From Shigella phage JK16: a stretch of 51,854 bases of DNA. The stretch is from the sequence record MK962751; one strand, written 5' to 3'. Positions 15,854 to 45,758 of this stretch are shown here, piece by piece (the stretch's first letter is position 1; each line of letters opens with the position of its first letter). Both the position numbers and the translations under genes were made by a program. The notes under the pieces were generated by a model. That model saw nothing but the letters and a program-made list of their open reading frames with translations, had not been told where the DNA came from and made no database searches.

Positions 15854-16318
15854 ATGAGCGAGCAATCATTAACTGACACGCTGCGCCGTGCAGCTATTAT
15901 GCTGGCTAATGGCGAGGAAGAGGCGATCAAGATTCCTGACGCGTATTTGCAGGTCCACATGTTCGGCAAGAAGTCGGCAAGCAATCCGGCGGCCTACATT
16001 CGCCAGATCATGAGTCGAGTTCCAGAAGTCGCCGAGCGGGGGCGCGTATCCGTTACCCGTGGAGTTTACGGGCCGGAAGATGAAAACTTCGGTAGCACTT
16101 TCTACGAGGTGCGCATTGTTGAAGGACGTCGCAAGGTTTACAACAAAGAGGCACTGGAAAGGGCAGTACGCCAGGCTAAGCGCAAGGTTGCAGAGGCGAT
16201 CATTGATATGTCACCAAACCTAGCAAACTATGCGCCGGAAGAGTATGAAACATTATCAAAGGCCGTCGCTGACTTTCACGCGATGATCAAAAAAACTTTC
16301 CTGGAGGATGAGCAATGA
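15854..16318 (+). CDS. hypothetical early protein
   Basis: 154 aa; AGGAGG RBS; first gene after strong promoter. Confidence 0.55.
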   Translation: MSEQSLTDTLRRAAIMLANGEEEAIKIPDAYLQVHMFGKKSASNPAAYIRQIMSRVPEVAERGRVSVTRGVYGPEDENFGSTFYEVRIVEGRRKVYNKEALERAVRQAKRKVAEAIIDMSPNLANYAPEEYETLSKAVADFHAMIKKTFLEDEQ

Positions 16319-16587
16319 AAAAGGCGTTAATCGGTGTTTTGGTGGCAATGGCATTCCTGACCGGATGTAAAGAAGATGGCGCGCATGTTGGCAATGTGCA
16401 GATGGCTAACCCTGGCGATGACTACAACGTAAGGGAGCTATTCACCGCTGACGGATGCACTGTTTACCGATTCTATGACGATCGCACTGTTTACTTCACC
16501 AACTGCAAGGGAACTACTAGCTGGGAAGTGTCGAAAAGCAATGGCAAAGGCACGAAGACAGAACATATGACCGTCGAGACAAAATAG
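16315..16587 (+). CDS. lipoprotein, possible superinfection-exclusion (Cor/Llp-like)
   Basis: Signal peptide with lipobox LTGC; 90 aa with three Cys. Confidence 0.5.
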   Translation: MKKALIGVLVAMAFLTGCKEDGAHVGNVQMANPGDDYNVRELFTADGCTVYRFYDDRTVYFTNCKGTTSWEVSKSNGKGTKTEHMTVETK

Positions 16588-16627
16588 CACTTTTTGTTAA
16601 AACTCAAAAACGATAACCAGGCATAAT
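16585..16627 (+). promoter_or_regulatory. motif-class promoter (motif, 18 nt, CATAAT)
   Basis: Motif supplies TAG stop of lipoprotein gene. Confidence 0.45.
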
Positions 16628-16832
16628 ACACACATAGACGGGCGGCAAGGATTGCTGCGGGAGAGGAGCGACGCAGGGGCTTGATCGAAGTGTCAGGATT
16701 CCCAACCGTGAGGCCAGAACTATCACACTCGCCACCAGGCAGAACGCTAGATAGGTCACTGAACTGAGGCTACCGACGAAGTGAAGCCCGTCACCAAAGA
16801 TTAAACGGTTATTTATGTGAAAGGGGTTAATG

Positions 16833-17012
16833 ATGGATAAGATCATCAAAATGAGCGAAGTCAAGCCGGGAATGATGGTTAAATTTGCTGGCAAATATCG
16901 CCTAGTGCTGGATAACTGCCGCAAAGAGAACATTCTTACAATTCGTGTAAATGGCAAGGCGCAGCTATTCGCCCCTAACGCAGATATTGACGTTGAAGTT
17001 AGAATTAAGTAA
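16833..17012 (+). CDS. hypothetical protein
   Basis: 59 aa; AAAGGGG RBS. Confidence 0.4.
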   Translation: MDKIIKMSEVKPGMMVKFAGKYRLVLDNCRKENILTIRVNGKAQLFAPNADIDVEVRIK

Positions 17013-17027
17013 TTAGGAGAAATCACC

Positions 17028-18152
17028 ATGTTAAAACTTGCTGACATTAAATTCCCGATCACCTTCGAATCTCGCGGCATTGGTCATTACATTTTTACTG
17101 ATGAAAAAACATGCCATAAGGTTAATATGAATAGCGACAAACTAAGCCCATCAACAATGGAGATTGAACACTTTATTGATGCGCACAATACGCAGTACAA
17201 CGCACTTAAAGACTATGGCTATGCAATGCCAGGCTACACATGTTTGCACTACAAGCCATATAAAGGCCAGGTGTTGCCAGTAAAAGAGAACAAGCAATTC
17301 CTGCTGGATAGCGAGGAGATTGTATACCCGATCACCTTTGAAACGGCAGGAAATAGCGTTGTGACTTTCACATCTCGCGACAACGGCACATATGGAAACG
17401 GCTTGAGAACAAGTTATAATGTTGATTACTTCGTCGCCTGTCATAACATGGCTAATCCTAACAACGATAAGAACAAGGTGTACTACGTGCGCGATATTGA
17501 AAGGCAGTGGCCTAAGAAAGACTCCCAGGCAGAGATTCCGATGGTTCATATGAAAACCTGCGACTACAAAAAGCTGTGGTGCTTAAGTCTGGACAATATC
17601 AAGTATCCGATCACGTTCCGCACGACTGGTAAGTCAACGATTCGCTACACATCGCGCGAAAATGGCGTTTATAGCGATGGTACGAAATCAGGGTTGAAAG
17701 TTGATTTCTTTGTCAACGGTCACAATAGATACAATCCGCACAACGAAGAGGATAAAGTGTACTACGTGGAAGACATTACAAAACACTTATTTGGAGAAAC
17801 TCCATTCGGCGGCGGTAAGACGTCAATTCAAAAAATCATTGGCGATGAGATCCACAAAGCGGCTGCCGAAATGAAAGCTCCTGGAGGCTGGCGTATTGAC
17901 AAGAGCGCATTTGCAAATCAAGAAATCGTAACGCAGGGCGCAATTGAAGATATGCCAGTTGCAGCCACTCTAAAAGGAGTCCGGCTTGATGACGGCACCT
18001 GGTATGAAGTAACGGCTACACCAAAGACGATCGAGATTCATGATGACGTTGTTATCCTTCTGCTTCACTACGGCGGCTATAAAAACCGGACGATTGCAGG
18101 TGAGATCAGCATTAAGCGCGGAACGATGATTAAGTGGAAGGTGAAGATTTGA
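17028..18152 (+). CDS. protein with three tandem repeats of a ~60-residue unknown domain
   Basis: Repeats start KFPITFESRG / VYPITFETAG / KYPITFRTTG and end HN..NP.N.(D/E)..KVYYV.DI; AGGAG RBS. Confidence 0.6.
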   Translation: MLKLADIKFPITFESRGIGHYIFTDEKTCHKVNMNSDKLSPSTMEIEHFIDAHNTQYNALKDYGYAMPGYTCLHYKPYKGQVLPVKENKQFLLDSEEIVYPITFETAGNSVVTFTSRDNGTYGNGLRTSYNVDYFVACHNMANPNNDKNKVYYVRDIERQWPKKDSQAEIPMVHMKTCDYKKLWCLSLDNIKYPITFRTTGKSTIRYTSRENGVYSDGTKSGLKVDFFVNGHNRYNPHNEEDKVYYVEDITKHLFGETPFGGGKTSIQKIIGDEIHKAAAEMKAPGGWRIDKSAFANQEIVTQGAIEDMPVAATLKGVRLDDGTWYEVTATPKTIEIHDDVVILLLHYGGYKNRTIAGEISIKRGTMIKWKVKI

Positions 18153-18228
18153 GTTTGCTCACTGCGGCGCACGTCGCCGCATGGATCGGATTGTTTTCCT
18201 ACCTGTTTAGCTTTTATTGAGGTGAGAG

Positions 18229-18381
18229 ATGGCTACCTGGATTTTGCTGATTCTTATGATTGATGGCGGCGTTGACCATATCGAAATGAATAGCCAGCAA
18301 TCTTGCATTGAGGCACGAGAGCAGATCAAGAACAACAACAGTTTTTATGCGTACACTCACACGCTATGTATTAAGAAATAG
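18229..18381 (+). CDS. small membrane protein (50 aa), paralog of 19670 gene
   Basis: Found by manual translation; GAGGTGAGAG RBS; N-terminal hydrophobic helix, conserved C..EAR.Q and C; stop inside motif. Confidence 0.35.
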   Translation: MATWILLILMIDGGVDHIEMNSQQSCIEAREQIKNNNSFYAYTHTLCIKK

Positions 18382-18420
18382 CACTTTTTGTTAAAACTCA
18401 AATGTGGGGCCAGGTATAAT
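18379..18420 (+). promoter_or_regulatory. motif-class promoter (motif, hairpin GGCCA..TGGCC containing TATAAT)
   Basis: -10 hexamer 17 nt after motif. Confidence 0.45.
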
Positions 18421-18450
18421 GGCCTCACTTTCAACGAAGGAGATAAAACG

Positions 18451-18672
18451 ATGTACATTAAAAATAAGATGAAATGCGTTTCCGTTAACTATGCTTGCTC
18501 TGGCATGTTCAAGCCTGGCGAAATCTATACGGCGCAAAAACTGAAAACATCAACCGGATCTTTTTACGTGAGCAATAGTAAGGGGTATCGCATGTTCCTG
18601 AACGGCGGCGAAGGCACTAAGGTTATGGCACACGCTATGGTAATGGCTGAATTTGAGGAAGTGAAACAATGA
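18451..18672 (+). CDS. hypothetical protein, tandem paralog A
   Basis: AAGGAG RBS; shares motifs with next gene. Confidence 0.45.
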   Translation: MYIKNKMKCVSVNYACSGMFKPGEIYTAQKLKTSTGSFYVSNSKGYRMFLNGGEGTKVMAHAMVMAEFEEVKQ

Positions 18673-18914
18673 TCATTGAAAACAATTTTCTTTGCGTTAA
18701 GAGCAATAGACCATTCTTCACACCTGGCAAGGTGTACCAGGGCAAGAAGGACACAAGAGATGGTCACTCTTATCATGTTCACTGCAACAACGGATACAAG
18801 TTTTACCTTAACGGCGAGAATGGAACTGAGATTGTTGCGTTTGAAAACGTAGTTGCCGAGTTCGAGCAGATTACAGACGCGGAATTTGAGGAAGTGAAAG
18901 ATGAAAACAAATAA
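18669..18914 (+). CDS. hypothetical protein, tandem paralog B
   Basis: Overlapping start; shares motifs with previous gene. Confidence 0.45.
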   Translation: MIIENNFLCVKSNRPFFTPGKVYQGKKDTRDGHSYHVHCNNGYKFYLNGENGTEIVAFENVVAEFEQITDAEFEEVKDENK

Positions 18915-19122
18915 GCGCGTCAAGCACAGGTTTACTGATAACCACGGCGACGCGATTGATGTATACAAGTTCGGCGATCGCGTGTTTATTGATGGCACGT
19001 TTGAAGGTGGTCGTAGGCCGGATTTTAGGTCGATACTTACCGTTGACCAAGTGCGCAAGCTGGCAGATAAGTTAAATGATCTGGCAGATGAAATAGAATA
19101 CAAGCAAATCCATTTTAATTGA
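18901..19122 (+). CDS. hypothetical protein
   Basis: 73 aa ORF. Confidence 0.4.
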   Translation: MKTNKRVKHRFTDNHGDAIDVYKFGDRVFIDGTFEGGRRPDFRSILTVDQVRKLADKLNDLADEIEYKQIHFN

Positions 19123-19133
19123 TAGGTTTTATA

Positions 19134-19673
19134 ATGAAAAAATACACTTTCGAACTATGGGGCAAGAAGTACGAATTAATCACCAGCAAGCCGATTGTTA
19201 TCGTTGACCTGGACGGCACACTATCGGACGGATCGCATCGTTTGCATTTGCTGCCAACTGAAAGCTTGCACCTTACGGAATCGTGGCGCGAGTTTAACAG
19301 GGCCGCAGCAGGAGATTCACCGATTAAAAGCACGATCGCGATTGTTAACGGTTTGTGGGTGTCGGGATTTGCCATCGTCATCTTGACCGGACGCAGCGAC
19401 GAGGTGCGCTATGAAACCTGCAAATGGTTGAATGAGAGCGGCGTGAAGTTTGACGAAATCATCATGCGCCGCCAGGAGGACAACCGAAAGGATACGGTTA
19501 TTAAAGAAGAAGCCTTGCGCGCTATTGGCCTGGACAATATTGTTTGCGCCTTTGACGATTCGCCGAACGTTGTTAAGCACTTCCGCAGCCTGGGAATCAC
19601 AACCTATCAGGTCACGGAATACGACAAGCCACACGCTCACCTGCAATCTCACGGCGTGGAGTGTTTAAAATGA
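19134..19673 (+). CDS. HAD-superfamily phosphatase (nucleotidase-like)
   Basis: HAD motif I IVIVDLDGTLSDG; later TGRSD and acidic motif CAFDDSPN. Confidence 0.55.
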   Translation: MKKYTFELWGKKYELITSKPIVIVDLDGTLSDGSHRLHLLPTESLHLTESWREFNRAAAGDSPIKSTIAIVNGLWVSGFAIVILTGRSDEVRYETCKWLNESGVKFDEIIMRRQEDNRKDTVIKEEALRAIGLDNIVCAFDDSPNVVKHFRSLGITTYQVTEYDKPHAHLQSHGVECLK

Positions 19674-19831
19674 CTTGGTTGCTTTTAATCTTTGTCACAA
19701 GTTACAACTCCGCAGCTATTGAGTCGCAGGAGTTCCACGGCGAATCAAGATGCCAGGAAGCGCGAAAGCAAGTTATTCTCCACATGTCAGATAGTGGGAA
19801 GGATGTAACAGCGTTATGCGTTCGTAAATAG
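19670..19831 (+). CDS. small membrane protein (53 aa), paralog of 18229 gene
   Basis: Found by manual translation; start overlaps HAD stop (ATGA); hydrophobic N-terminus; stop inside motif. Confidence 0.35.
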   Translation: MTWLLLIFVTSYNSAAIESQEFHGESRCQEARKQVILHMSDSGKDVTALCVRK

Positions 19832-19872
19832 CACTTTTTGCAAAAAACAGATCATCGGGCTTGCTGTATAGT
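19829..19872 (+). promoter_or_regulatory. motif-class promoter (motif variant TTGCAAAAAAC, hairpin GGGCTT..AAGCCC containing TATAGT)
   Basis: 19 nt gap to TATAGT; leader CAACAACAAACGAGGATTAAATC ATG. Confidence 0.45.
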
Positions 19873-19903
19873 AAGCCCATCAACAACAAACGAGGATTAA
19901 ATC

Positions 19904-20167
19904 ATGGCTAACAAGATCGAGTTTTTTAAAGCTGTAGACATTATCGACGGCGCGCCTAGCTTCTTTGCTATCCATTCTATTGACGGCAAGGATATTGGGT
20001 ACAACGTTATCCGTCGAGATGGAATCTCAAAAATTAGTGACCTGGTAGGCCATATTGTGTCAAACGGGAAATGCGCATGGCCCGATTCGCCACGAGAGCC
20101 ACGCCGCCGCGACATGGTAGAGCCTGTTCTGCTTTACACTCTGGTAGTAGAGGGAGAAAATAAATGA
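19904..20167 (+). CDS. hypothetical protein
   Basis: 87 aa; GAGGA RBS. Confidence 0.45.
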   Translation: MANKIEFFKAVDIIDGAPSFFAIHSIDGKDIGYNVIRRDGISKISDLVGHIVSNGKCAWPDSPREPRRRDMVEPVLLYTLVVEGENK

Positions 20168-20349
20168 TTTGGTTACTTGCTTTTTTGGTTGCTTTTCTCT
20201 ACATTTCAGGCTTATTTACGTTCCGCGCTTTTGTGAAATATTCTGGCACGACAGACAAGGACGATAAAATCGTTCTCGCTTTCTGGTTTGTTTGGGTGTG
20301 GTTAGCAATTTACGAGATCATTAGAGACAAACAGAAATTTGAGTGGTGA
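20164..20349 (+). CDS. small membrane protein
   Basis: 61 aa, two hydrophobic helices. Confidence 0.4.
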   Translation: MIWLLAFLVAFLYISGLFTFRAFVKYSGTTDKDDKIVLAFWFVWVWLAIYEIIRDKQKFEW

Positions 20350-20408
20350 TTCTTGCTATGGCGCATTCATGCAGTGCGCCATGTTGAGAAAACCTAAAGG
20401 GGGAGACG

Positions 20409-20558
20409 ATGCGTAACTTTGAAAAAATCATTACCAAAAAGAAGCGTCGCGGGTACGATGAGCATGTGGAGCTTGTGAAAAAGCAACGCAAGAAGCGCAA
20501 CGAAGACAAGAAGCGCGGGAAAAAAATTAATGCGATTTTTCGCTATGGAGATCATTAA
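20409..20558 (+). CDS. small highly basic protein (49 aa)
   Basis: Found by manual translation; GGGGGAG RBS; Lys/Arg-rich. Confidence 0.3.
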   Translation: MRNFEKIITKKKRRGYDEHVELVKKQRKKRNEDKKRGKKINAIFRYGDH

Positions 20559-20560
20559 TC

Positions 20561-21151
20561 ATGAAACGAGACATTATCATCCTTAATGGGCCGCCAGGTT
20601 GCGGGAAGGACACTATTGCAGCTTACCTAACGGGCCATCGTTACCCAGCGGTTAATGCGTCATTCAAACAGCCGATGTTCGATATTGCGTTTTCCATGCT
20701 TGGCACGACTCGATATGATGAGTTTATTGACCTGTACAACGACCGAGAGCAAAAAGAAAAGCCTCAAGTTATCTTAGGCGGCAAGTCACCTCGACAATTC
20801 ATGATCTGGATTAGCGAGGATGTAATGAAGCCAGTCTTTGGGGAGCAGTATTTCGGGCGTCGAATGGTTGAAGAGATTAACGAGATGTACCGAGATTTGG
20901 CGGTTGTGATCAGTGATGGCGGATTCCACGAAGAAATCAAGCCGCTTGTTAAGGCAGGGCATGAAGTGCATATTTGCCGATTGCATCGCGACGGCTTCAC
21001 GTTTGCTGGCGATTCGAGAGACTACATTGACCTGAGCGGTTATCACTATCGAATCCATCACTATGACTTCCACTTGCAGGACGGCAAGCCGGAACTGGCT
21101 GTAAACGAGATCGTCAATGCTGTCAAATGGAAGCACACACAGATTAAATAG
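20561..21151 (+). CDS. deoxynucleoside monophosphate kinase (T4 gp1-like)
   Basis: Walker A LNGPPGCGKDT and downstream GGKSP motif resembling T4 gp1 dNMP kinase. Confidence 0.55.
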   Translation: MKRDIIILNGPPGCGKDTIAAYLTGHRYPAVNASFKQPMFDIAFSMLGTTRYDEFIDLYNDREQKEKPQVILGGKSPRQFMIWISEDVMKPVFGEQYFGRRMVEEINEMYRDLAVVISDGGFHEEIKPLVKAGHEVHICRLHRDGFTFAGDSRDYIDLSGYHYRIHHYDFHLQDGKPELAVNEIVNAVKWKHTQIK

Positions 21152-21191
21152 CACGAATTGCTAAACGCGGGGCGCAATGCCTCGCTATAAT
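21149..21191 (+). promoter_or_regulatory. motif-class promoter variant (TAGCACGAATTGCTAAACG, 18 nt, TATAAT)
   Basis: Variant motif supplies TAG stop; consensus -10. Confidence 0.45.
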
Positions 21192-21221
21192 GCAAACACC
21201 AATCAACGAGAGGAAACAATC

Positions 21222-21623
21222 ATGGTGGAGTTAAACGACATTCGCGTTGGAACAAAATTTCGCGTAACCTGGGCAGATAAATATTGTGGCGTTAGCAAGG
21301 GCCAGGTTGTTGCGGTGGATAGTATTTATCGTGGTGTTAGTGGTGACTTTCGCCGTCCGCGCATCAATAATGGCTATATCATTACTCGCCGTATTGGCTT
21401 TGATAATTATTGCGTAGTGGCGACTCAAGGAGTTTTGATTGAGCTTAAGAGAATCAGCGATCATCGCGGTCGTCATGTTAAGGCAATGAAAACACCATTT
21501 CAGCGAGCGAGATACGATGCGCGACGTATGCGCCGACTTGCGCGAAATGCGATCAAGTTCAAAAAGCCTGGCGATGATTTTTACGGCATGTATAAGGGGA
21601 TTGCGCGCAATGCTGGGAAATAA
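21222..21623 (+). CDS. hypothetical protein
   Basis: 133 aa; GAGAGGAAA RBS. Confidence 0.45.
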   Translation: MVELNDIRVGTKFRVTWADKYCGVSKGQVVAVDSIYRGVSGDFRRPRINNGYIITRRIGFDNYCVVATQGVLIELKRISDHRGRHVKAMKTPFQRARYDARRMRRLARNAIKFKKPGDDFYGMYKGIARNAGK

Positions 21624-21722
21624 CAATAACGCAACGAATCCTAAGACACCTTTTGATTTTCATTCCGCAATGATTGCGGTATTATCAATGCTACTTTTTC
21701 TTTATAGCATGAGGGCGCTACT

Positions 21723-21971
21723 ATGGTTTTTAACGCATTGAAACGACTGTTTAAGCCGGAATACCGGATCGTATTTTGCCGCGACTGTTCTACTTATCAT
21801 GTGCAGCGACGCAGCTTAGGCGGCAATTGGCACTATGTTACAGACGACTTTTTCGGCATCATTGCCACTGAATTTAAGTATTACAGCGATGCTTATATGT
21901 ACGTCAAGAAGCGCCACCGCTTACGCAAGTGTCGTTTTTCCGTGCTGATTCACGTTAATGATTGTTACTGA
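21723..21971 (+). CDS. hypothetical Cys-containing protein
   Basis: 82 aa ORF. Confidence 0.4.
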   Translation: MVFNALKRLFKPEYRIVFCRDCSTYHVQRRSLGGNWHYVTDDFFGIIATEFKYYSDAYMYVKKRHRLRKCRFSVLIHVNDCY

Positions 21972-21978
21972 GGTGAAA

Positions 21979-22161
21979 ATGAAAACTGGTATTATTATTC
22001 TTTTCCTGATTCTTTTCGGCAGTCATTTAACCATTAACTATGAGGGCATTATGGCCTTTTGGGGCAACTTGATGATGTTTGCCGCTGGTTCAATTGCTGG
22101 CTACTCTGACGGGAAAAAGGATGGTGTGCGCAAGATGCTGATGGGGCTTAAACAAAAATAA
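21979..22161 (+). CDS. small membrane protein
   Basis: GAGGTGAAA RBS; two hydrophobic helices. Confidence 0.4.
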   Translation: MKTGIIILFLILFGSHLTINYEGIMAFWGNLMMFAAGSIAGYSDGKKDGVRKMLMGLKQK

Positions 22162-22172
22162 GGGGATATGAA

Positions 22173-22463
22173 ATGGCAAACAAAACTTACCGCAAACTAC
22201 TGGTTAACGCTTTTGAAAACATCGCGCAGTGTAACAAGTGGAACGACTCTAAACACTCGCCAATCACAATGAAGCGCGCCGGATTCAAAAATACTCGTTC
22301 ATGGGCGCGAGCTTTCGCAGCTTGCTATATGCCGGATGGCGGACTAGGGGTGATGAACGATTTTTTGATCAACATGATAGAGGAAGCGGCGCGAGAGGAT
22401 CGACCGCTGACACAGCGAGATTTTGACGGCTTCGCGCGCGATGAGCTTTACTATCTGAGTTAA
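22173..22463 (+). CDS. hypothetical protein
   Basis: 96 aa; AAGGGGA RBS; followed by motif. Confidence 0.45.
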   Translation: MANKTYRKLLVNAFENIAQCNKWNDSKHSPITMKRAGFKNTRSWARAFAACYMPDGGLGVMNDFLINMIEEAAREDRPLTQRDFDGFARDELYYLS

Positions 22464-22506
22464 TAGCACTTTTTGTTAAAACTTCCGCAAGGGCATTTGG
22501 TAAAGT
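22464..22506 (+). promoter_or_regulatory. motif-class promoter (motif, hairpin AAGGGCA..TGCCCTT, weak -10 TAAAGT)
   Basis: Motif after TAA stop; weak -10-like hexamer at 18 nt. Confidence 0.4.
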
Positions 22507-22538
22507 GCCCTTATTGAAGCGAAACAGAGGAAAGCGCA

Positions 22539-22751
22539 ATGAAAATCAAAATCACCAAAATCGACACTATCAACGGCGACGGATCAATCACTCTTGAGCA
22601 ATGTGGCTTGGTTGTTGGTGATGTGCTGGAAGTTGACGGACATTTCAGCGACGGATCTTATTGTGTTATTGCGCCGCGCAACAGCGAGTTTATCAAGGCT
22701 GGCGACAATATTAGTGTTAACCATGACGAATGCGAGGTAGTAGAAGAATGA
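22539..22751 (+). CDS. hypothetical protein
   Basis: 70 aa; AGAGGAAA RBS. Confidence 0.45.
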   Translation: MKIKITKIDTINGDGSITLEQCGLVVGDVLEVDGHFSDGSYCVIAPRNSEFIKAGDNISVNHDECEVVEE

Positions 22752-28017: not shown

Positions 28018-28769
28018 TAGTGAAAGGCGTCGTTAAACAATGGCGCTTTCCTGAAGCAAGCGAGCGGCAATTGCGCCGCTCAATTCAGGAGGCGATAAGG
28101 GATCTTGTTGTGCTGATGCGCAGCAAAACAAAGGAAATGAAATTTGACGCGGACACCGAAGAAATCAACGCCGCAGAGGATGAGATTAGTAGCTTCGCGT
28201 TAAAGCTAATAGCTGGCATCGCCGCATCACTTCCGGCTATCGGTTTTGCTGTTTATAAATTCAACGCGAAGCAATTTATTAACGTAGCCAAATCAACTGG
28301 AGGCAAGTCAAATTCAGCCGTTATCATCCTTATGGCTATTGGGGCCAATGCGAATGAGAGTTGGTATAGGACGCTATACGGTCAATGGCATGACATGACG
28401 ATCGCATCTCTTCAAAAGCTATTTGGAAACATCGTGTCTGACTGGTCAACCAATATTAGATTGGCAAACTTTCGCGGAATGAGAGATAGCCAGGTTAATG
28501 AATTGGCTGGTAAGAGGTTCGCAGTGTATAGCTCTTGGGGTAAGACAAGGGCGGAAAACATCATAGGCGCTTGGAATAGTAGACTCATGCGCCAGCGTCT
28601 TTATGATTCAAAAGTAACTCATTATTTTTGGCATGGTATGCTTGATGACAGAGAGCGATTGCAGCATGTACAATGGGAAGGTAAGCGCATTGCGCTAGAT
28701 TCTGAACATGATTTTCCTGGTGAGCCTTTCGGTTGTCGTTGTTGGGCCATACCAGATTGGAACAGTTAA
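28014..28769 (+). CDS. head morphogenesis protein (Mu F / SPP1 gp7-like)
   Basis: C-terminal HYFWHG...GCRCWAI pattern typical of this family; position after portal. Confidence 0.6.
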   Translation: MIVKGVVKQWRFPEASERQLRRSIQEAIRDLVVLMRSKTKEMKFDADTEEINAAEDEISSFALKLIAGIAASLPAIGFAVYKFNAKQFINVAKSTGGKSNSAVIILMAIGANANESWYRTLYGQWHDMTIASLQKLFGNIVSDWSTNIRLANFRGMRDSQVNELAGKRFAVYSSWGKTRAENIIGAWNSRLMRQRLYDSKVTHYFWHGMLDDRERLQHVQWEGKRIALDSEHDFPGEPFGCRCWAIPDWNS

Positions 28770-28779
28770 GAGGTATTAA

Positions 28780-29895
28780 ATGAAGGCAAAACAAAGATTT
28801 GATAGCGCCAAAGTAAAGGCGCACTTTGATGATAACGGGTTTTTAGTTGATCGCCCTATCGTGGCGCGAATTGGTTTACAAGTCTATCAGACTCCTTTCG
28901 GTGAGCGCCGAGAATTTCGCCCTGCGTCAGAAGTATTCAAGGCCGACTCGCTCGCCACCTTTGCAGGGAAGCCGGTCACGGTTGGTCACGTCACGGTAAC
29001 GCCAGAAAACGCCGAAAAGGTTGTAGTTGGTTCTTGTGCTGGCGCTGGTGTGCCGAACGGGATCGGCGTAGAGGTTCCGTTAAGCATTTACTCAAAACGA
29101 GCAATCGAAAGCGCAAAGAAGCGAGACACGGCGGAAATTTCAGTTGGTTATACATCGGTTGATATTGATAAACCAGGCTGGGGCAATAATAAAACTGGTG
29201 AGTACGTTTTCGATGAGGACGTTAGCGAAGACTGGAAACCTGATTCTCCTGATTGGGTTAAGTTTGATGCAATCCAGACTGAAATCAAGGTAAACCACAT
29301 CGCGTTAGTTTTCCGAGGTCGAGCTGGCATTGCAAAATTAAACCTTGATAGCCAGCAAGATTTTCCGTATAGTGACGACGTTATTAACAACAAAGAGGAT
29401 CAAATCATGACTGTAAAAATTAAACTGGATGGCGCTGTAGAGTTTGACGTGCCGAAAGCGGTTGCGGATCACATTGAATCACTGAAAGCTGATACCAAAG
29501 CGCAGAAAGAAAAGGCTGACAGCCTGGAAGCTGAGCGAGACGCACTGCAAACCAAAGTAGATGGCATTCAGGATCAGATTGATGCCGCAGTCAAGAAGGC
29601 CAAAGAAGATGCCGAGCAATATGCTCAATTAGTGGCAGACGCTAAAGAGTTAGGCATCAAGTGCGACGGCCTGGATGCGAAAGCAATCAAGGTTGCATAC
29701 ATCAAGGAAGTTATGGGCAATGACGTTTCTGATAAAACTGATGCCTATATCGAAACAGCTTTCGACATCGCCAAAAACTCTGATAAAATGGCGGCGCAGC
29801 GTAAGAGCATTAAAGGTGACTCTTTCGCGAATGAAAAGCAGGATGACGCAGGTTCTAAGCTGAATCCTAACGCTCGTTTTGAGAAACTGAAATAA
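28780..29895 (+). CDS. scaffold protein (possible prohead protease-scaffold fusion)
   Basis: C-terminal half is charged coiled-coil (KADTKAQKEKADSLEAERDALQTKVDGIQDQID...); position before capsid genes. Confidence 0.45.
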   Translation: MKAKQRFDSAKVKAHFDDNGFLVDRPIVARIGLQVYQTPFGERREFRPASEVFKADSLATFAGKPVTVGHVTVTPENAEKVVVGSCAGAGVPNGIGVEVPLSIYSKRAIESAKKRDTAEISVGYTSVDIDKPGWGNNKTGEYVFDEDVSEDWKPDSPDWVKFDAIQTEIKVNHIALVFRGRAGIAKLNLDSQQDFPYSDDVINNKEDQIMTVKIKLDGAVEFDVPKAVADHIESLKADTKAQKEKADSLEAERDALQTKVDGIQDQIDAAVKKAKEDAEQYAQLVADAKELGIKCDGLDAKAIKVAYIKEVMGNDVSDKTDAYIETAFDIAKNSDKMAAQRKSIKGDSFANEKQDDAGSKLNPNARFEKLK

Positions 29896-38418: not shown

Positions 38419-38420
38419 TA

Positions 38421-38771: not shown

Positions 38772-38776
38772 TTTTA

Positions 38777-38801: not shown

Positions 38802-38834
38802 TTGATGTTACAATGAGCAAAAAGGAGGTAGAAA

Positions 38835-39596
38835 ATGGCTAATAAAGAATCAGGTAGAGTTGAATTTGAGAACTGCCTACAAAGTTTGTACCCAGGCGAA
38901 ATTATAACGCTTGTAGAGATTGACGGGACGAAGTTCGGAGCAAATATTTACCGATTTCACAATGAGAACATCTCTTATACTGCCGAGGAATTAATGCAAG
39001 CGCAGCAAACCGGAATCTTGCCGCCGAAAGATATTATTTTTCAGGGTGATGTTTACGGAGCGCGGCCTTTCGGTGTGAGCGGGATTAACTTCACAAGTAA
39101 CGGCAGGGCAGATAAGCCTCAGCTTATAGTGTCAAACCTTGACAGCAGGGTGAGCGCCATGATCAGAAATTACAATGGCATGATGCAAGCAAAGGTGACT
39201 TTCTGGATAACGGCAAAGGAATTTATCGGAGAAGGCGGAGCAATCAAAGATGGCGCTTACAGAAAATTGGTTTATTACATTGAGCGCCCAAGCCAGTACA
39301 ATAGAGAGATAGCGAAATTTGATCTAACATCGCCTTACGATATGGATGGATTAATGATCCCGCCGCGCATCACTCAAAGCGTCTGCTATTGGGCGCAAAG
39401 GGGGTGGTACAGGAGCGGAAAGGGTTGCTCTTATAACGGATCGGCAATGTTCGATAAAGACAATAAGCCAGTAACAGATCCATCACAAGACTATTGCGCC
39501 GGAACTGTAACGGCTTGCAAATTGAGGTTCGGTCAGCAAAACGAGTTGGATTTCGGCGGTTGCGCGGTGGCGTCACTGCTACGGAGGAATCAATAA
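38835..39596 (+). CDS. minor tail protein L (lambda gpL-like)
   Basis: C-terminal Cys cluster (CYWAQ...GKGCSYNG...YCAGTVTACK); position. Confidence 0.7.
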   Translation: MANKESGRVEFENCLQSLYPGEIITLVEIDGTKFGANIYRFHNENISYTAEELMQAQQTGILPPKDIIFQGDVYGARPFGVSGINFTSNGRADKPQLIVSNLDSRVSAMIRNYNGMMQAKVTFWITAKEFIGEGGAIKDGAYRKLVYYIERPSQYNREIAKFDLTSPYDMDGLMIPPRITQSVCYWAQRGWYRSGKGCSYNGSAMFDKDNKPVTDPSQDYCAGTVTACKLRFGQQNELDFGGCAVASLLRRNQ

Positions 39597-40327
39597 TGAT
39601 TAGTGCAAAAATTAAACTTGAAATAATGCAGCACGTTAAAGAGGAATACCCTAAAGAGGCTTGCGGCGTCATAACTCAAAAGTCACGGGTACAGAAATAT
39701 CACCGCATAACCAACGTGCATGACGATCCAGAAAATCACTTTGAAATGGACGCCGTAGAATACGCTGAATCGCTCGACAAAGGCGAATTAATCGCGGTGG
39801 TGCATTCCCATTGCGGGGATGGTGCTAGCACGATACCGAGCGCGCACGACTCATGTATGTGCGATGAAATGGGTGTATCGTGGATTATAGTTTCATGGCC
39901 CGAAGGTGATATGAGAATTGTCGAGCCGCAGGAGAGGCCGCTTATCGGTCGCCCGTGGTCGCTGGGGTCGTTCGATTGCTGGGGTCTTATCATGGCATGG
40001 CATAAACAGCACGGAGTAGTATTGAATGACTTCCGAAAGCCTTACGAGTGGTGGAAGTCAGAATATGGTGAAAATCTTTACCAGGATAATTATTTGAAAG
40101 AGGGATTTGTTGAAACTAACGAGCCTCCAAAACCTGGTGATATGGTGATTATGCAACTATCATCACCAGTCTGGAATCATGCGGGAATTTATTTGGGTAA
40201 CAACCAGCTATTACATCATGCGTTTGGAAAGCTATCTCGCATCGACTTGTATTCTGGATGGTATCAGGAGCACACTGTAAAAATTTGCCGACATAAGGAT
40301 CTGAAATATGACATTGAAAGTAATTAA
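39596..40327 (+). CDS. tail assembly protein K (JAB/MPN plus NlpC/P60 domains)
   Basis: JAMM-like HSHCGDGASTIPSAHD and NlpC/P60 Cys-His pattern (FDCWGL...H...H). Confidence 0.75.
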   Translation: MISAKIKLEIMQHVKEEYPKEACGVITQKSRVQKYHRITNVHDDPENHFEMDAVEYAESLDKGELIAVVHSHCGDGASTIPSAHDSCMCDEMGVSWIIVSWPEGDMRIVEPQERPLIGRPWSLGSFDCWGLIMAWHKQHGVVLNDFRKPYEWWKSEYGENLYQDNYLKEGFVETNEPPKPGDMVIMQLSSPVWNHAGIYLGNNQLLHHAFGKLSRIDLYSGWYQEHTVKICRHKDLKYDIESN

Positions 40328-40904
40328 ACTATCCGGTTCCCTGGGGCGTAGATTTGGCGTCTTTCACAAAATGGCGGTTGACTCATACCCCGAAGCAATA
40401 CGCGCGTTATCTTCCCAGGTTGAAGGGTTCAAGGACTACATGCAAAGCGAAGTAGGATCGCGAATGAAGTATGCTGTATTCGTTGATGGAAAAAACGTTG
40501 GTCAGCATGATGAAAAATCATGGAAGTGCGCGCGAGAGGTTCGAATAGTTCCTGTTCCAACTGGTTCTAAGTCCGGCGGCCTGTTCAATGTTGTTTTTGG
40601 TGCTGTAATTATGGCTACTGCGTTCATTACTGGCGGTGCAAGCCTGGCGGCTATGGGCGCTTTTGCATCTTCCGCATTTATGATGGGTGGGGCTATCGCG
40701 TTGGGCGGTGTAATGCAAATGATCTCACCGCAGCAGGGAGGAATGAAACTGCAAAGCCAATCATCGGAAAACAAGCCTTCTTACGCTTTCGGCGGTGCTG
40801 TAAATACCACGGCGGCAGGTTATCCGGTTCCTTTGCCATATGGATATAGGACAGTAGGCGGCGCAATCTGGTCGGCTGGCAGCTACGCAGAAGATAAAGC
40901 ATAA
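40308..40904 (+). CDS. tail assembly protein I (lambda gpI-like)
   Basis: Gly/Ala-rich hydrophobic C-terminal half; position between K and J. Confidence 0.65.
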   Translation: MTLKVIKLSGSLGRRFGVFHKMAVDSYPEAIRALSSQVEGFKDYMQSEVGSRMKYAVFVDGKNVGQHDEKSWKCAREVRIVPVPTGSKSGGLFNVVFGAVIMATAFITGGASLAAMGAFASSAFMMGGAIALGGVMQMISPQQGGMKLQSQSSENKPSYAFGGAVNTTAAGYPVPLPYGYRTVGGAIWSAGSYAEDKA

Positions 40905-40908
40905 AAAA

Positions 40909-40934
40909 ATACCCGCCTTGCGCGGGTTTTTTTG
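40909..40934 (+). terminator. rho-independent terminator or attenuator before J
   Basis: Stem ACCCGC/GCGGGT followed by T7. Confidence 0.55.
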
Positions 40935-40982
40935 TGCATTTATAATGTGCAAACCAAGAAACAGCACAAAAGGTTAAAAGTC

Positions 40983-43900
40983 ATGGCTAAATATATGATA
41001 AGCGGCAGTAAGGGCGGAAGCAAAAAGCCATACGTGCCAAAAGAGATGGAAGATAACCTGATCTCGATAAACAAGATTAAAGTTTTGCTGGCTGTATCTG
41101 ATGGCGAGTGCGATCCAGATTTCACGTTGCGCGATCTTTATCTTGATGATGTTCCGGTTATTGCCAGCGATGGCACTGTTAACTACGAGGGAGTTACGGC
41201 TGAATATCGACCAGGTACGCAGACGCAAGATTACATCCAGGGTTTTACTGACACATCAAGTGAGGTGACAGTTGCAAGAGATATTACCGGAGACAATCCT
41301 TATGTTATTTCTGTTACAAATAAAAATCTATCTGCGGTAAGAATAAAGATCCTGATGCCAGTAGGCATTAAAACAGAGGATAACGGCGATCTTGTTGGCG
41401 TAAGGGTTGAGTATGCCGTAGATATGGCTGTTGATGGCGGTTCTTATAGCGAGGTTATGAGAGATGTAATTGACGGCAAGACAAGATCAGGATACGACCG
41501 CAGCAGAAGGATTGATCTTCCTAAGTTTGATGAGCGCGTTTTAATCCGAGTAAAGCGACTGACTCCAGACAGCACATCTTCAAAGGTGACTGATAAAATC
41601 AAGCTGCAAAGTTACGCTGAGGTTGTTGATGCAAAATTCCGCTATCCTCTGACTGGACTTGTATTCGTAGAATTTGACAGCGAATTGTTTCCTACGCAAA
41701 TCCCTAACATTTCTATAAAAAAGAAATGGAAGATTATTAATGTGCCAAGCAACTATGATCCAATATCAAGAGAATATCACGGGTCATGGGATGGGACTTT
41801 TAAAAAAGCGTGGTCAAATAATCCTGCTTGGGTTCTTTATGATCTGGTGACAAATCAGCGTTATGGACTTGATCAGCGAGAGTTAGGAATACAGATCGAC
41901 AAGTGGAGCTTATACGAAGCGGGCGTTTACTGCGATCAGAAAGTTCCAGACGGTAAAGGCGGCACTGAGCCTCGCTACCTATGCGATGTGGTGATTCAGA
42001 ATCAAGTTGAGGCTTATCAGCTAATCCGTGACATTTGCTCAATCTTTCGCGGAATGAGTTTTTGGAATGGTGAGAGCTTATCAATCGTGATTGATAAGCC
42101 GCGCGATCCATCATACGTGTTTACTAATGAAAACGTCATCAACGGTGATTTTCAGTACACAAACGCAAGCGAAAAAAGCATGTACACGCAGTGTAACGTG
42201 ACGTTTGACGACGAACAAAACATGTATCAGCAGGACGTAGAGGGGGTTTTTGATACTGAGGCTGCATTACGATTTGGATACAATCCAACAAGCATTACAG
42301 CGATCGGTTGTACACGCAGGAGCGAAGCGAATCGTCGCGGTCGGTGGGTTTTGAAAACAAACCTTAGAAGCACTACTGTAAACTTTGCTACCGGACTAGA
42401 GGGGATGATTCCATCAATAGGTGATGTGATTGCTATCGCTGATAATTTTCAGAGCAGCAACCTAACGTTAAACCTATCGGGCCGAGTGATGGAAGTTTCA
42501 GGATTGCAGGTTTTCGTTCCGTTTAAGGTTGATGCTCGTCCTGGTGATTTTATTATCATCAACAAGCCGGACGGAAAGCCAGTTAAGCGCACGATCTCAA
42601 AGGTTAGCGCAGACGGAAAAACCATTGAGTTAAATATTGGATTTGGTTTTGATGTTAAGCCTGATACTGTTTTTGCGATTGACCGTACTGACCTTGCGTT
42701 GCAGCAATACGTTGTGACAACTATCAGCAAGGGTGATGACGAAAACGAGTTTACCTATTCAATCACTGCTGTAGAGTACGATCCGAACAAATACGACGAG
42801 ATTGATTATGGAGTAAACATTGATGACAGACCGACTTCAATTGTTCAGCCTGACGTGATGGCAGCGCCTGAGAACGTTAAGATCTCATCTTATTCTCGCG
42901 TCGTGCAGGGTGTTAGCGTTGAGACTATGGTTGTTTCATGGGATAAGGTTCCTTACGCATCGCTTTATGAAATGCAGTGGCGAAAAGGTGATGGTAACTG
43001 GCTGAATACGCCGCAGACCGCTAACAAAGAGATAGAGGTAGAAGGGATTTACTCTGGCAACTACCAAGTAAGGGTGAGATCCGTTTCTGCAAGCGGTAAC
43101 GCTTCCCCGTGGTCAAAGATTGCAACCGCCACTCTGACAGGTAAAGTTGGAGAGCCAGGAGCGCCGATTAATCTTACGGCTTCTGATAATGAAGTTTTTG
43201 GCATTCGTGTCAAATGGGGTATGCCGGAAGGATCAGGCGATACGGCTTACATTGAGCTTCACCAATCGCCAGACGGAACGGTTGAAAACTCAAGTCTGCT
43301 TACGCTGATTCCATATCCTCAATATGAGTATTGGCATAGCACGTTACCAGCGGGGCAAGTTGTATGGTATAGAATCCGCAGCGTTGACAGAATAGGCAAC
43401 GTTTCAAGCTGGACTGACTTTGTTCGCGGCATGGCGTCAGATGACGTTGAATCTGTTTTGGGCGACATTCTGGACAAGATTTTTGATACAGAAGCTGGTC
43501 AAGAAATCAAAGAGAACGCCATAGACAGTGCCAATAAAATCAAAGACCAGGCGCAATCAATCATACAGAACGCGTTGGCAAATGATGCAGATGTGAAGTG
43601 GACGCGAGTGCAAAACGGAAAGCGCAAGGCTGAATATGGTCATGCTCTTGAGCTTATCGCCAATGAAACAGAAGCGCGCGTAACTCAAATCGAAGAATTA
43701 AGGGCATCAATTGATGGCGAGATAACATCAAGCATCAAGACAGTGCAGGAGGCAATTGCCACTGAATCAGAGACGCGAGCGACTCAAATTCAGCAGCTTG
43801 ATTCTAAATTCACAAAAGAAATCGACGGCGTGCGCAAGGATACTTCTGCAAGCATTAGCGATGTAAGGCAGACAATCACTAACGAGTCAGAAGCGCGCGC

Positions 43901-44561
43901 TCAGGCCGTTCAGCAGCTTGACGCTAAGTTCACGAAAGAGATAAACGACCTTGACGGAGTTATCAAAACAGAAGTCGAGGCTAACATCTCAGAAGTGAAA
44001 CAGGCGATCGCCAATGAGACAGAGGCAAGGGTTCAGGCTGACCAGGCATTAACAGCACGATTTGGCGACGTTGAATCTGCATTGGTTGAAAAGTTGGATT
44101 CTTGGGCGAGCGTTGATTCAGTTGGGGCTAAATACGCTATGAAACTTGGCCTTACTTACAAAGGCCAGCAATACAGCGCAGGAATGGTGATGCAGCTTTC
44201 GCAGGGTTCATCCGGCCTTATCTCGCAAATTTTGTTTGATGCTAACAGGTTCGCCATTATGACTAGCTCTACTGGAGGGACTTTTACTTTGCCTTTCGTG
44301 GTTGAGAATAATCAGGTTTTCATTAATAGTCTTTTGGTGAAGAACGGTTCAATCACTAATGCGATGATTGGTAATGTGATTCAGTCAAACAACTTTGTTC
44401 AAAACCAGCAAGGATGGAGGCTTGATAAAAACGGAATCTTTGAGAATTACGGATCAACGCCAGGAGAAGGAGCTACTAAATTCACCAATGAGGGATTGAA
44501 GGTAAAAGATGCAAACGGAGTATTGAGGGTTGAAGTCGGAAGGATTACCGGAAGCTGGTAA
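40983..44561 (+). CDS. central tail fibre / host specificity protein J
   Basis: 1192 aa; two fibronectin-III-like segments; C-terminal tandem repeats; position after I. Confidence 0.85.
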   Translation: MAKYMISGSKGGSKKPYVPKEMEDNLISINKIKVLLAVSDGECDPDFTLRDLYLDDVPVIASDGTVNYEGVTAEYRPGTQTQDYIQGFTDTSSEVTVARDITGDNPYVISVTNKNLSAVRIKILMPVGIKTEDNGDLVGVRVEYAVDMAVDGGSYSEVMRDVIDGKTRSGYDRSRRIDLPKFDERVLIRVKRLTPDSTSSKVTDKIKLQSYAEVVDAKFRYPLTGLVFVEFDSELFPTQIPNISIKKKWKIINVPSNYDPISREYHGSWDGTFKKAWSNNPAWVLYDLVTNQRYGLDQRELGIQIDKWSLYEAGVYCDQKVPDGKGGTEPRYLCDVVIQNQVEAYQLIRDICSIFRGMSFWNGESLSIVIDKPRDPSYVFTNENVINGDFQYTNASEKSMYTQCNVTFDDEQNMYQQDVEGVFDTEAALRFGYNPTSITAIGCTRRSEANRRGRWVLKTNLRSTTVNFATGLEGMIPSIGDVIAIADNFQSSNLTLNLSGRVMEVSGLQVFVPFKVDARPGDFIIINKPDGKPVKRTISKVSADGKTIELNIGFGFDVKPDTVFAIDRTDLALQQYVVTTISKGDDENEFTYSITAVEYDPNKYDEIDYGVNIDDRPTSIVQPDVMAAPENVKISSYSRVVQGVSVETMVVSWDKVPYASLYEMQWRKGDGNWLNTPQTANKEIEVEGIYSGNYQVRVRSVSASGNASPWSKIATATLTGKVGEPGAPINLTASDNEVFGIRVKWGMPEGSGDTAYIELHQSPDGTVENSSLLTLIPYPQYEYWHSTLPAGQVVWYRIRSVDRIGNVSSWTDFVRGMASDDVESVLGDILDKIFDTEAGQEIKENAIDSANKIKDQAQSIIQNALANDADVKWTRVQNGKRKAEYGHALELIANETEARVTQIEELRASIDGEITSSIKTVQEAIATESETRATQIQQLDSKFTKEIDGVRKDTSASISDVRQTITNESEARAQAVQQLDAKFTKEINDLDGVIKTEVEANISEVKQAIANETEARVQADQALTARFGDVESALVEKLDSWASVDSVGAKYAMKLGLTYKGQQYSAGMVMQLSQGSSGLISQILFDANRFAIMTSSTGGTFTLPFVVENNQVFINSLLVKNGSITNAMIGNVIQSNNFVQNQQGWRLDKNGIFENYGSTPGEGATKFTNEGLKVKDANGVLRVEVGRITGSW
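43650..44060 (+). repeat. in-frame tandem repeats within J C-terminal region
   Basis: Repeated peptide ...ESE(A/T)RA.Q.QQLD(A/S)KFTKEI... about 40 residues apart. Confidence 0.6.
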
Positions 44562-44562
44562 A

Positions 44563-44590
44563 AAAGGGGGCATAGCCCCCTTTAATTTTA
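44563..44590. terminator. bidirectional rho-independent terminator between J (plus) and minus-strand genes
   Basis: Stem AAGGGGG/CCCCCTT flanked by A-run and T-run. Confidence 0.7.
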
Positions 44591-45202
44591 ATCATAGTGT
44601 GATGCATTTATAACCAAAACAGATGAAGCGGTGTAAATACCAACAGGTCCAGGAGTTTGTGCAACCTGCCTAGAAAAAGAGTAGATCCCGTTACCATACG
44701 CGGCAGCTTGAGACTCAAAAATCATGAATCCACCTAAAGCCGGATTAGGAACAGAGTTTAATGCTGTCAGTGATGGCATTATGGCGCAAGGATAGCCCAT
44801 GTTAACATCAAATGCGATCCCGCTTACGCCTACTTGCTTTGCATCTAGCGGCCTCATTTTTCCATGATAAACCATTTCACCATGAGCATTATAAAACGCT
44901 ATGCCGTGACTACCTGGGGGAGTCACCATATTACTAAAAGCATAAACAATAACCTCACCCTGATTATCAGATCTATCAAGTCTTATTGCGTGCCTTCCAC
45001 CATTGTTAAATTGCGTGAATGATATGTATGATTTAGCGGTCAATCTAACAAAGAAAAAACATACCCTATCAACAGGAATTGACGAAGTAAAAACGGTTCC
45101 GGTATTAGCAGATATTACGGCCCGATCAATTAGATTAACTGGAGTGAAATCTGGACTTAACCATAACGATCCGTCTGATTTTTTTATACTCATCCCGTAC
45201 AT
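44588..45202 (-). CDS. hypothetical protein
   Basis: 204 aa; GGGGTG RBS. Confidence 0.4.
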   Translation of the reverse strand: MYGMSIKKSDGSLWLSPDFTPVNLIDRAVISANTGTVFTSSIPVDRVCFFFVRLTAKSYISFTQFNNGGRHAIRLDRSDNQGEVIVYAFSNMVTPPGSHGIAFYNAHGEMVYHGKMRPLDAKQVGVSGIAFDVNMGYPCAIMPSLTALNSVPNPALGGFMIFESQAAAYGNGIYSFSRQVAQTPGPVGIYTASSVLVINASHYD

Positions 45203-45204
45203 TA

Positions 45205-45483
45205 TCACCCCCAAAAAGTATATATATATCTTGAATCAGATCCAGAAAGCCCACTCCATGTAACGGTGTCGCCACTTACCCCTAAGTTTGGTGCGCCAGG
45301 GTCGCCACCACGCCAGGAATTCATGCCAACATATATTGCTTTCAATGATTTACCTGGCGGCCTGTTTTGGTAAGTCTTGCTACCTGATGGCTGAGTGAAT
45401 TTATCAAGGAAGAAAACAGGCGTTAAAAGACCTGTAACTTCCCTTCCTCGATCGTCATATATTGCATAACCATATTGCGCCAT
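45205..45483 (-). CDS. hypothetical protein
   Basis: 92 aa ORF. Confidence 0.4.
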   Translation of the reverse strand: MAQYGYAIYDDRGREVTGLLTPVFFLDKFTQPSGSKTYQNRPPGKSLKAIYVGMNSWRGGDPGAPNLGVSGDTVTWSGLSGSDSRYIYTFWG

Positions 45484-45758
45484 TAATTACACCTCAAATC
45501 AATAAATTTACTTTCATTTTGCCAACGGTTGATAAATTTAACTTCTTTATTGTCAACGCTCAACCTGTATTGCTTTTGGCTGAATCTGTTTTCTCGGACT
45601 GCATTAATTTTGACTTCATGTAATCCGTTAACAGGGAATGTTTTAACGTTAAATTTTGCCGTGCAATCGATCTCCTTGAAGTTGCCAGTAGGCGACGCTG
45701 CGCATCCTGTCAGAGCGGCTACAGTGGCGATAACTGCGATTAACTTTTTCATCTTCAA
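45483..45758 (-). CDS. lipoprotein, candidate superinfection-exclusion protein (Llp/Cor-like)
   Basis: Signal peptide with lipobox LTGC; about 90 aa with Cys near both ends; AAGGAG RBS; next to tail fibre gene J. Confidence 0.5.
   Translation of the reverse strand: MKMKKLIAVIATVAALTGCAASPTGNFKEIDCTAKFNVKTFPVNGLHEVKINAVRENRFSQKQYRLSVDNKEVKFINRWQNESKFIDLRCN

Follow-up and report, generated by a model that had tools for sequence, protein, structure and literature searches.

Two small predicted lipoproteins are encoded in the 51,854-nucleotide sequence of Shigella phage JK16 (record MK962751), which, taken at its full length, we call the window; the two are referred to below as open reading frames A and B (ORF-A and ORF-B). 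ORF-B is best read as the BtuB-specific counterpart of the receptor-blocking lipoproteins Cor and Llp. Overall we consider it probable, at roughly 60%, that ORF-B is the receptor-blocking exclusion lipoprotein of a BtuB-type host-recognition cassette and that ORF-A is a different lipoprotein, of the DUF4884 family, which does not block its own phage's receptor. An earlier note on this DNA had proposed both as superinfection-exclusion factors. We retain that proposal for ORF-B, a cassette counterpart of T1 Cor and of Rtp45 whose predicted receptor is BtuB and which tracks BtuB and not FhuA; we drop it for ORF-A, which belongs to another family, shows null-level similarity to Llp and Cor and is unlinked to the receptor locus. 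Around the tail fibre gene J, the window is 99.2–99.8% identical to Escherichia phages JLBYU19, tonn, swan01, SECphi27 and others of the genus Warwickvirus, and by its sequence it is a T1-like coliphage of that genus (Drexlerviridae, Tempevirinae).

Both reading frames are present at the positions reported by the earlier note (16315-16587, and 45483-45758 on the minus strand), and the LTGC lipobox that it described was confirmed in each, together with signal-peptide features that mark both products as lipoprotein precursors. The N-termini, MKKALIGVLVAMAFLTGC in ORF-A and MKKLIAVIATVAALTGC in ORF-B, each combine a lysine-rich n-region and an uncharged hydrophobic h-region with the L-T-G-C lipobox, which is followed by KED in ORF-A and by AAS in ORF-B. 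A residue other than Asp at position +2 predicts sorting to the outer membrane by the Lol system; since this residue is Lys in ORF-A and Ala in ORF-B, outer-membrane sorting is predicted for both. When every six-frame ORF of 40 or more amino acids in the window was scanned for a strict lipobox, with 100 shuffled windows as the control, these two ORFs were returned and no other. The shuffled windows held a mean of 0.07 such ORFs, and none of the 100 held two or more. Relaxing the scan added only one ORF, which resembles a unimolecular spanin (u-spanin), at 7583-7975. This third lipobox protein (plus strand, 130 amino acids) adjoins a 163-amino-acid ORF and probably serves the lysis cassette as its unimolecular spanin, like gp11 of T1. 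Homology between ORF-A and ORF-B was rejected, as their match is confined to the signal peptides and a profile comparison of the mature domains stays at the null level. PADLOC defence models gave no match.

The start of ORF-B had been placed at TTG 45758, a codon that sits only 2 nucleotides past the AAGGAG ribosome-binding site (RBS). ATG 45752 is the likely start because it has normal RBS spacing and is the start annotated in phage tonn; it gives a precursor of 89 amino acids with the lipid-bearing Cys17 encoded at 45702-45704. A translationally coupled, three-gene operon on the minus strand downstream of J begins with ORF-B, which is followed there by two receptor-recognition genes. The earlier note's description of ORF-B as lying next to J therefore needs correcting: these two genes, at 44588-45202 and 45205-45483, intervene. 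The gene for the 204-amino-acid protein likely starts at ATG 45202, as annotated in tonn, and not at TTG 45214.

The distribution of ORF-B supports an association with BtuB specificity and not with FhuA. In the BASEL supplement, BtuB is the terminal receptor of FritzSarasin/Bas04 and of KarlJaspers/Bas06, the two BASEL carriers that we checked. Bas04 (Warwickvirus) encodes an ORF-B homologue with 97.8% identity, and Bas06 (Hanrivervirus) encodes one with 55.7% identity in the same three-gene locus. PeterMerian/Bas05, which uses FhuA and belongs to the same genus as the window, has at the ORF-B site a protein 56% identical to T1 Cor. ORF-B is 100% identical in JLBYU19, one of the JLBYU warwickviruses for which FhuA was reported not to be the sole receptor (PMC10373560). 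A preprint has modelled a Bas06 receptor-binding protein with BtuB (10.64898/2026.04.02.716166).

The window was aligned with PeterMerian at the DNA level across the whole locus. From the exonuclease side through a promoter-like module, the 5' untranslated region and the RBS, identity is 90–100%, and over the signal-peptide codons it is still about 70–100%. It drops to about 36%, the random level, exactly at the lipobox Cys codon, stays there as far as the J stop codon and returns to 64–72% in the 3' end of J. The mature domain of ORF-B has thus been swapped together with the receptor-binding genes, as one exchangeable cassette. In T1 and PeterMerian the two recognition genes (of ST32/ST31 type) run in the direction of J and cor runs opposite to it; the gene pair is inverted in the window, which indicates that the lipoprotein and both genes form one unit. 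The 92- and 204-amino-acid proteins share PHROGs 557 and 425 with ST32 and ST31, the genes between J and cor in T1 (T1 28607-29601), and on this basis the BtuB- and FhuA-type cassettes are distant homologues in opposite orientation; pairwise BLASTP of the two proteins against ST32 and ST31 was insignificant. A (Y/W)G-x-x-(I/V)-(Y/W/F)-(D/N)-x-x-G motif occurs in both recognition proteins and again at an internal site of the 204-amino-acid protein. The order lipoprotein, protein of about 90 amino acids, protein of about 215 amino acids recurs in family members that share as little as 36% and 23% identity with ORF-B and whose partners are homologous to those of the window. A narrow-alignment search for related loci found only two near-identical IMG/VR loci.

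ORF-B is not, by sequence, a member of Cor proper. Against phrog_1119 (Cor) it scores 33 bits (E 9e-8) with its signal peptide and gives no match without it, and BLASTP against T1 Cor aligned residues 1-34 only. The homology break at the lipobox Cys confines BLAST and PHROG matches to Cor to the N-terminus of ORF-B, and we rejected the PHROG label 'Cor' for a match carried by the signal peptide and an NCBIfam score under the cut-off. Relatives of ORF-B are few: a profile search of 1.84 billion representatives returned just 25. The lipid Cys, Cys30 (45663-45665) and Cys88 (45489-45491) are invariant in 34 aligned sequences, including the annotated exclusion protein of Bas27, and Cys30 and Cys88 form a candidate disulfide that would staple the termini of the mature chain. 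This topology matches that of Llp, whose termini are tied by a Cys11-Cys58 bond, a topology common to Cor (PMC9586334).

Mature domains were then compared by hhalign profile alignment, each against 100 shuffles. ORF-B scored 22.7 against T5 Llp (P 2e-4, probability 47%), a value reached by none of the 100 shuffles (null 9.6 ± 2.3). Against the exclusion protein of Bas27, a BtuB-type T5-like phage, the score was 16.6 (0 of 100 shuffles), and against the Cor family it was 15.0, which two of the 100 shuffles reached; the comparison with Rtp45 stayed at the null level (P 0.07). An AlphaFold2 model of ORF-B is all-beta, with a mean predicted local distance difference test score (pLDDT) of 73 and values of about 80–88 in the mature part. 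In a BFVD fold search, its top matches were Proteus and Providencia phage lipoproteins (E 5e-5), and the fourth-ranked match was the 'Receptor-blocking protein' of Yersinia phage phiR2-01 (E 0.025, probability 1.0), a BtuB-dependent T5-like phage according to a citation in PMC10644984. A PDB sequence search with the ORF-B family profile found nothing. ORF-B is best read from these comparisons as a distant branch of the Llp/Cor-like stapled lipoproteins.

ORF-B shares features with several known exclusion lipoproteins and differs from each of them. T5 Llp, whose complex with FhuA has been solved (PDB 8A60, PMC9586334), is likewise a small outer-membrane lipoprotein encoded beside a receptor-binding gene, with a Cys-Cys pair linking its N- and C-termini, and both would act on a TonB-dependent transporter, FhuA for Llp and, as predicted, BtuB for ORF-B. 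Similarity between the two mature domains is weak but above null: the segments KDIKCEAYY and EIDCTAKF align, as do DRxG and G-x-W motifs. The mature domain of ORF-B is longer (72 versus 61 amino acids) and, unlike Llp, ORF-B shares a transcription unit with the receptor-binding genes. Cor of T1, phi80, N15 and HK022 (phrog_1119) occupies the identical position, with the J-distal recognition genes on one side and the gene for exonuclease VIII on the other, and its partner genes fall in the same PHROGs; Cor of the congener PeterMerian also shares the promoter, RBS and signal peptide. Cor and ORF-B have in common a lipobox, signals for outer-membrane sorting, a gene on the strand opposite J and two additional Cys close to the termini of the mature chain. 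These two Cys align end to end, as do the motifs C-T-A-x-Y and E-x-x-F-x4-C. ORF-B differs from Cor in that its mature domain has no HMMER-detectable similarity, in that its carriers Bas04 and Bas06 use BtuB and not FhuA, and in that its recognition genes are inverted into one operon.

The blockers of BtuB-dependent T5-like phages (BF23 Llp, Bas27 bas27_0200 and that of phiR2-01) share with ORF-B the BtuB target, which for ORF-B is predicted, a precursor of 88–89 amino acids and three aligned Cys. Identity to them is about 27–34% and concentrated at the N-terminus; phrog_1119 clearly includes the Bas27 protein (77 bits) but not ORF-B, and the partner receptor-binding protein of these phages is pb5-like, unlike that of ORF-B. 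Rtp45, the LptD blocker of phage Rtp from the same family, has the same arrangement of a minus-strand lipoprotein gene followed by a receptor-binding gene (rtp45-rtp44) downstream of J. It differs from ORF-B in having no sequence similarity to it (phrog_4281) and in its target, as LptD does not belong to the TonB-dependent transporters. Several GenBank records named 'Campylobacter phage' (MG0656xx, about 47–50 kb, host C. jejuni) carry Drexlerviridae coliphage genes, among them an ORF-B homologue with 52% identity, and their naming or host assignment looks doubtful.

By analogy with Llp and FhuA, lipidated and Lol-transported ORF-B would sit in the inner leaflet of the outer membrane and bind the periplasmic face or the plug of BtuB, a plugged TonB-dependent transporter. 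BtuB would thereby be locked with its extracellular loops closed, so that the 204-amino-acid receptor-binding protein could not bind; superinfection by BtuB-using phages would be blocked, and progeny would not be wasted on cell debris. The idea of a BtuB blocker is not new and has been predicted in silico before. Cognate exclusion lipoproteins are placed at this locus by Maffei et al. 2021, by van den Berg et al. 2022 and by the KanT1 paper (PMC13164509), the last of which infers Cor-like proteins in BtuB-using Tempevirinae, and one GenBank record already names the ORF-B protein Cor.

The main alternative to this allosteric mechanism, which we regard as unlikely, is a steric block in which ORF-B itself intrudes into the barrel or the loops of BtuB. 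Cryo-EM of Rtp45 shows it bound to the periplasmic side of LptD, where it prevents attachment of the receptor-binding protein and physically displaces extracellular loop 4 (10.1101/2025.07.07.663478). The operon layout of ORF-B equals that of rtp45-rtp44 and its mature domain is larger than that of Llp, both of which fit such a mode; yet similarity is seen, weakly, to Llp and not to Rtp45, and BtuB is plugged like FhuA, so that its lumen is not open from the periplasm. It is far less probable, and in our view very improbable, that ORF-B is an accessory for host recognition or for receptor-binding-protein function with no part in exclusion, or that one of the two lipoproteins is a lysis o-spanin. 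An accessory role is implied by the neutral name 'accessory protein'; translational coupling to two recognition genes fits such a role, as do k-mer models that flag co-localised accessory proteins as predictive of specificity (10.64898/2026.04.02.716166), but a lipoprotein exported by Sec and Lol cannot act on virion assembly in the cytoplasm, and the proteins that correspond to it in position, Cor, Llp and Rtp45, all function in exclusion. An o-spanin (Rz1-like) identity was rejected for both ORFs, as neither is embedded in or adjacent to an i-spanin gene or lies near lysis genes, and the lysis cassette with the u-spanin-like lipoprotein lies elsewhere.

Several observations weigh against the reading of ORF-B as a BtuB blocker and of ORF-A as unrelated to its phage's receptor. 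In sequence, ORF-B resembles Cor and Llp only marginally (HH probability 47% for Llp and 3% for Cor), the NCBIfam Cor model NF047972 (lamb_exclu_cor) gives it 19.3 bits against a curated cut-off of 31, and Foldseek of its model against the PDB produced no significant match, with Llp outside the top 50. The allosteric mechanism is drawn by analogy, while Rtp45 works sterically, and in the literature BtuB-type Drexlerviridae lipoproteins figure as blockers by in silico prediction. Co-transcription with virion genes that are presumably late sits oddly with a factor that would be needed early. As for ORF-A, the case against receptor blocking is correlative, and it is possible that the protein blocks a non-cognate receptor or a conserved protein; its AlphaFold2 model is weak (pLDDT 64), and a Foldseek search of the PDB with that model gave no fold match.

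The repeated 18-mer ATAGCACTTTTTGTTAAA has 18 sites in the window at ≤3 mismatches, against 0.2 expected by chance, among them 3963-3980, 5034-5051, 16584-16601 and 45809-45826 on the minus strand, the last at the probable promoter of the ORF-B operon. With few exceptions the 18-mer points the same way as the local genes, and in many cases it begins at the stop codon of the preceding gene; it is followed in turn by a short inverted repeat rich in GC, a −10-like element (CATAAT/TATAAT), an RBS and an ATG. Seven exact copies occur in T1. The element looks like a repeated phage promoter, or terminator/promoter, module, and it lies mostly upstream of genes outside the structural-gene block. Its presence at the ORF-B operon suggests expression before the late genes. 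A bidirectional terminator-like hairpin at 44563-44583 separates J from the minus-strand operon.

ORF-A belongs to a different and widely distributed family. It matches Pfam DUF4884 (PF16225) with 31.9 bits against a gathering threshold (GA) of 30 and also matches phrog_6360, and 22 of its 24 database homologues carry the DUF4884 match. The 24 homologues share the lipobox, invariant Cys48 and Cys64 and the core LFTVDGCTVYRFYDDRTVYFTNCKG; in ORF-A these two Cys flank a conserved beta-hairpin core, DGCTVYRFYDDRTVYFTNC. Other members of DUF4884/phrog_6360, such as rtp3 of Rtp, share the lipobox, both Cys and the core motif, and the window allele differs from most DUF4884 homologues in having lost a second Cys pair (SCGKxC). 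DUF4884 lipoproteins are found across siphoviruses, myoviruses, jumbo phages and prophages of several Proteobacteria; homologues of ORF-A come from Serratia myoviruses, Pseudomonas phage Dolphis, Xanthomonas jumbo phage X1 and a Pseudomonas prophage. They sit in early or accessory regions of unrelated phages, including a 124-kb contig with a T4-type RNA ligase and Lar and a 71-kb contig with queuosine genes, and the neighbourhoods inspected hold nucleotide-metabolism, methyltransferase and small uncharacterised genes. A genome-collection scan with the ORF-A profile returned seven loci, six from Pseudomonas and one from a deltaproteobacterial metagenome-assembled genome; the one inspected is a prophage region. 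A PDB profile search gave only summed weak matches of about 3.5 bits each, and its beta-propeller 'Cake' match was rejected as evidence. The ORF-A core at 16420-16530, matched there to designer PQQ-like blade repeats, may be a single blade-like hairpin unit or a chance match.

Within the window, ORF-A is preceded by an RBS (GGAGGA) 6 nucleotides upstream of its start, and it is paired with a DUF7174 gene, a pair also found at the left end of the Rtp genome (rtp1/rtp3). Its position and the two near-consensus sigma-70 promoters ahead of the unit suggest that it lies in the early region. The promoter ahead of the unit is duplicated at 15211-15239 by an exact 585-bp tandem repeat (14867-15451 and 15452-16036), which comprises two sigma-70-like promoters and the first 185 nucleotides of the DUF7174 gene. 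Since 51,854 less 585 gives 51,269, the genome size of close relatives, this repeat may not be a real duplication but terminal redundancy or an assembly overlap left untrimmed. The surroundings of ORF-A are mosaic, and no relative spans more than 70% of 15500-17500. Downstream, at 17028-18152 on the plus strand, lies a gene for a 374-amino-acid, internally repeated protein that matches phrog_7116 (173 positions) in three stretches.

Compared with near-identical relatives, both lipoprotein genes show a mosaic breakpoint at the codon of the lipobox Cys (45700-45704 and 16366-16370), where the signal peptide is conserved (70–100% DNA identity) and the mature domain exchanged. For ORF-A, the window and tiwna are 93–100% identical in DNA through the promoter region, the DUF7174 gene and the 18-amino-acid signal peptide, and the identity breaks right after the lipobox Cys. 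ORF-A is encoded about 29 kb from the receptor-binding genes, and its alleles assort independently of the receptor locus: SLUR29 has ORF-A at 95.6% identity with a Cor-type locus, and atuna, mar001J1 and tiwna have ORF-B at about 97% with ORF-A at 46–49%. Drexlerviridae homologues of ORF-A occur in users of BtuB, of FhuA (Bas05, Bas07) and of LptD (Bas02; Rtp, rtp3). Since presence and allele type are independent of the receptor, ORF-A is not expected to block the phage's own receptor, and a role as a Cor/Llp-type blocker of that receptor is not supported.

It could still be that receptor blocking is the role of both lipoproteins, and that ORF-A shuts out competing phages by masking a second receptor in the outer membrane, such as FhuA or a different TonB-dependent transporter. 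ORF-A is a bona fide lipoprotein, predicted to sort to the outer membrane, in a unit with consensus sigma-70 promoters, and a mature domain that is hypervariable between near-identical genomes, with a break exactly at the lipobox Cys as in ORF-B, would fit an arms race. We nevertheless judge this quite unlikely: in hhalign the similarity of ORF-A to Llp and Cor is at the null level (P 0.3–0.36), that to Rtp45 is likewise not above null, and the gene is unlinked to any receptor-binding gene. Moreover, the core DGCTVYRFYDDRTVYFTNC is common to Escherichia, Serratia, Pseudomonas and Xanthomonas phages with differing receptors, which argues for a conserved target and not for a specific porin or transporter. 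The swapped, hypervariable mature domain hints at a contested interaction. Our weak best guess is that ORF-A is an accessory factor that works independently of the receptor, on a conserved component of the envelope, possibly in exclusion after adsorption. That it stands for a widespread class of DUF4884 phage lipoproteins acting on such a component, in receptor-independent exclusion or envelope takeover, is a tentative suggestion to which we give low odds. The coordinates of the features are collected in Table 1.

Table 1. Features of the two lipoprotein loci in the window (position 1 is the first nucleotide of the window; a dot marks a feature without strand).
Feature	Position	Strand	Remarks
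ORF-B	45483-45752	-	89-amino-acid lipoprotein precursor; predicted BtuB-specific Cor/Llp-like receptor blocker
ORF-B signal peptide and lipobox	45702-45752	-	About 70–100% DNA identity with the PeterMerian Cor gene
92-amino-acid accessory protein of the host-recognition cassette	45205-45483	-	phrog_557, family of T1 ST32; start overlaps the ORF-B stop as TAATG
204-amino-acid protein, probable BtuB receptor-binding protein	44588-45202	-	phrog_425, family of T1 ST31
J-like central tail fibre/tail-tip gene	40932-44561	+	Converges on the receptor cassette
Copy of the 18-mer, ATAGCACTTTTTGCTAAA, then a TATAGT −10-like element; probable promoter of the ORF-B operon	45809-45826	-	Repeated module class
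Exchangeable receptor-specificity cassette	44562-45700	.	About 36% identity to the FhuA-type congener; conserved flanks
ORF-A	16315-16587	+	90-amino-acid DUF4884 lipoprotein precursor; lipid Cys18 at 16366-16368
DUF7174 gene	15854-16318	+	Translationally coupled to ORF-A; stop/start overlap ATGA
Near-consensus sigma-70 promoter, TTGACA-17-GATAAT	15796-15824	+	30 nucleotides upstream of the DUF7174/ORF-A unit

The breakpoint between signal peptide and mature domain shows how a receptor-binding gene and the blocker that matches it move together as a single cassette, which is useful for receptor prediction and for engineering. If ORF-B blocks BtuB, the model built on Llp, in which a transporter is jammed from the periplasm, would be widened from FhuA to a second TonB-dependent transporter and to a second phage family. 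Such a blocker would also be a small protein tool to shut BtuB, the entry point for vitamin B12, the E colicins and BF23-like phages, and it would bear on the design of phage cocktails, in which phages sharing BtuB would exclude one another. ORF-A, the less ordinary of the two, flags a widespread family of phage lipoproteins.

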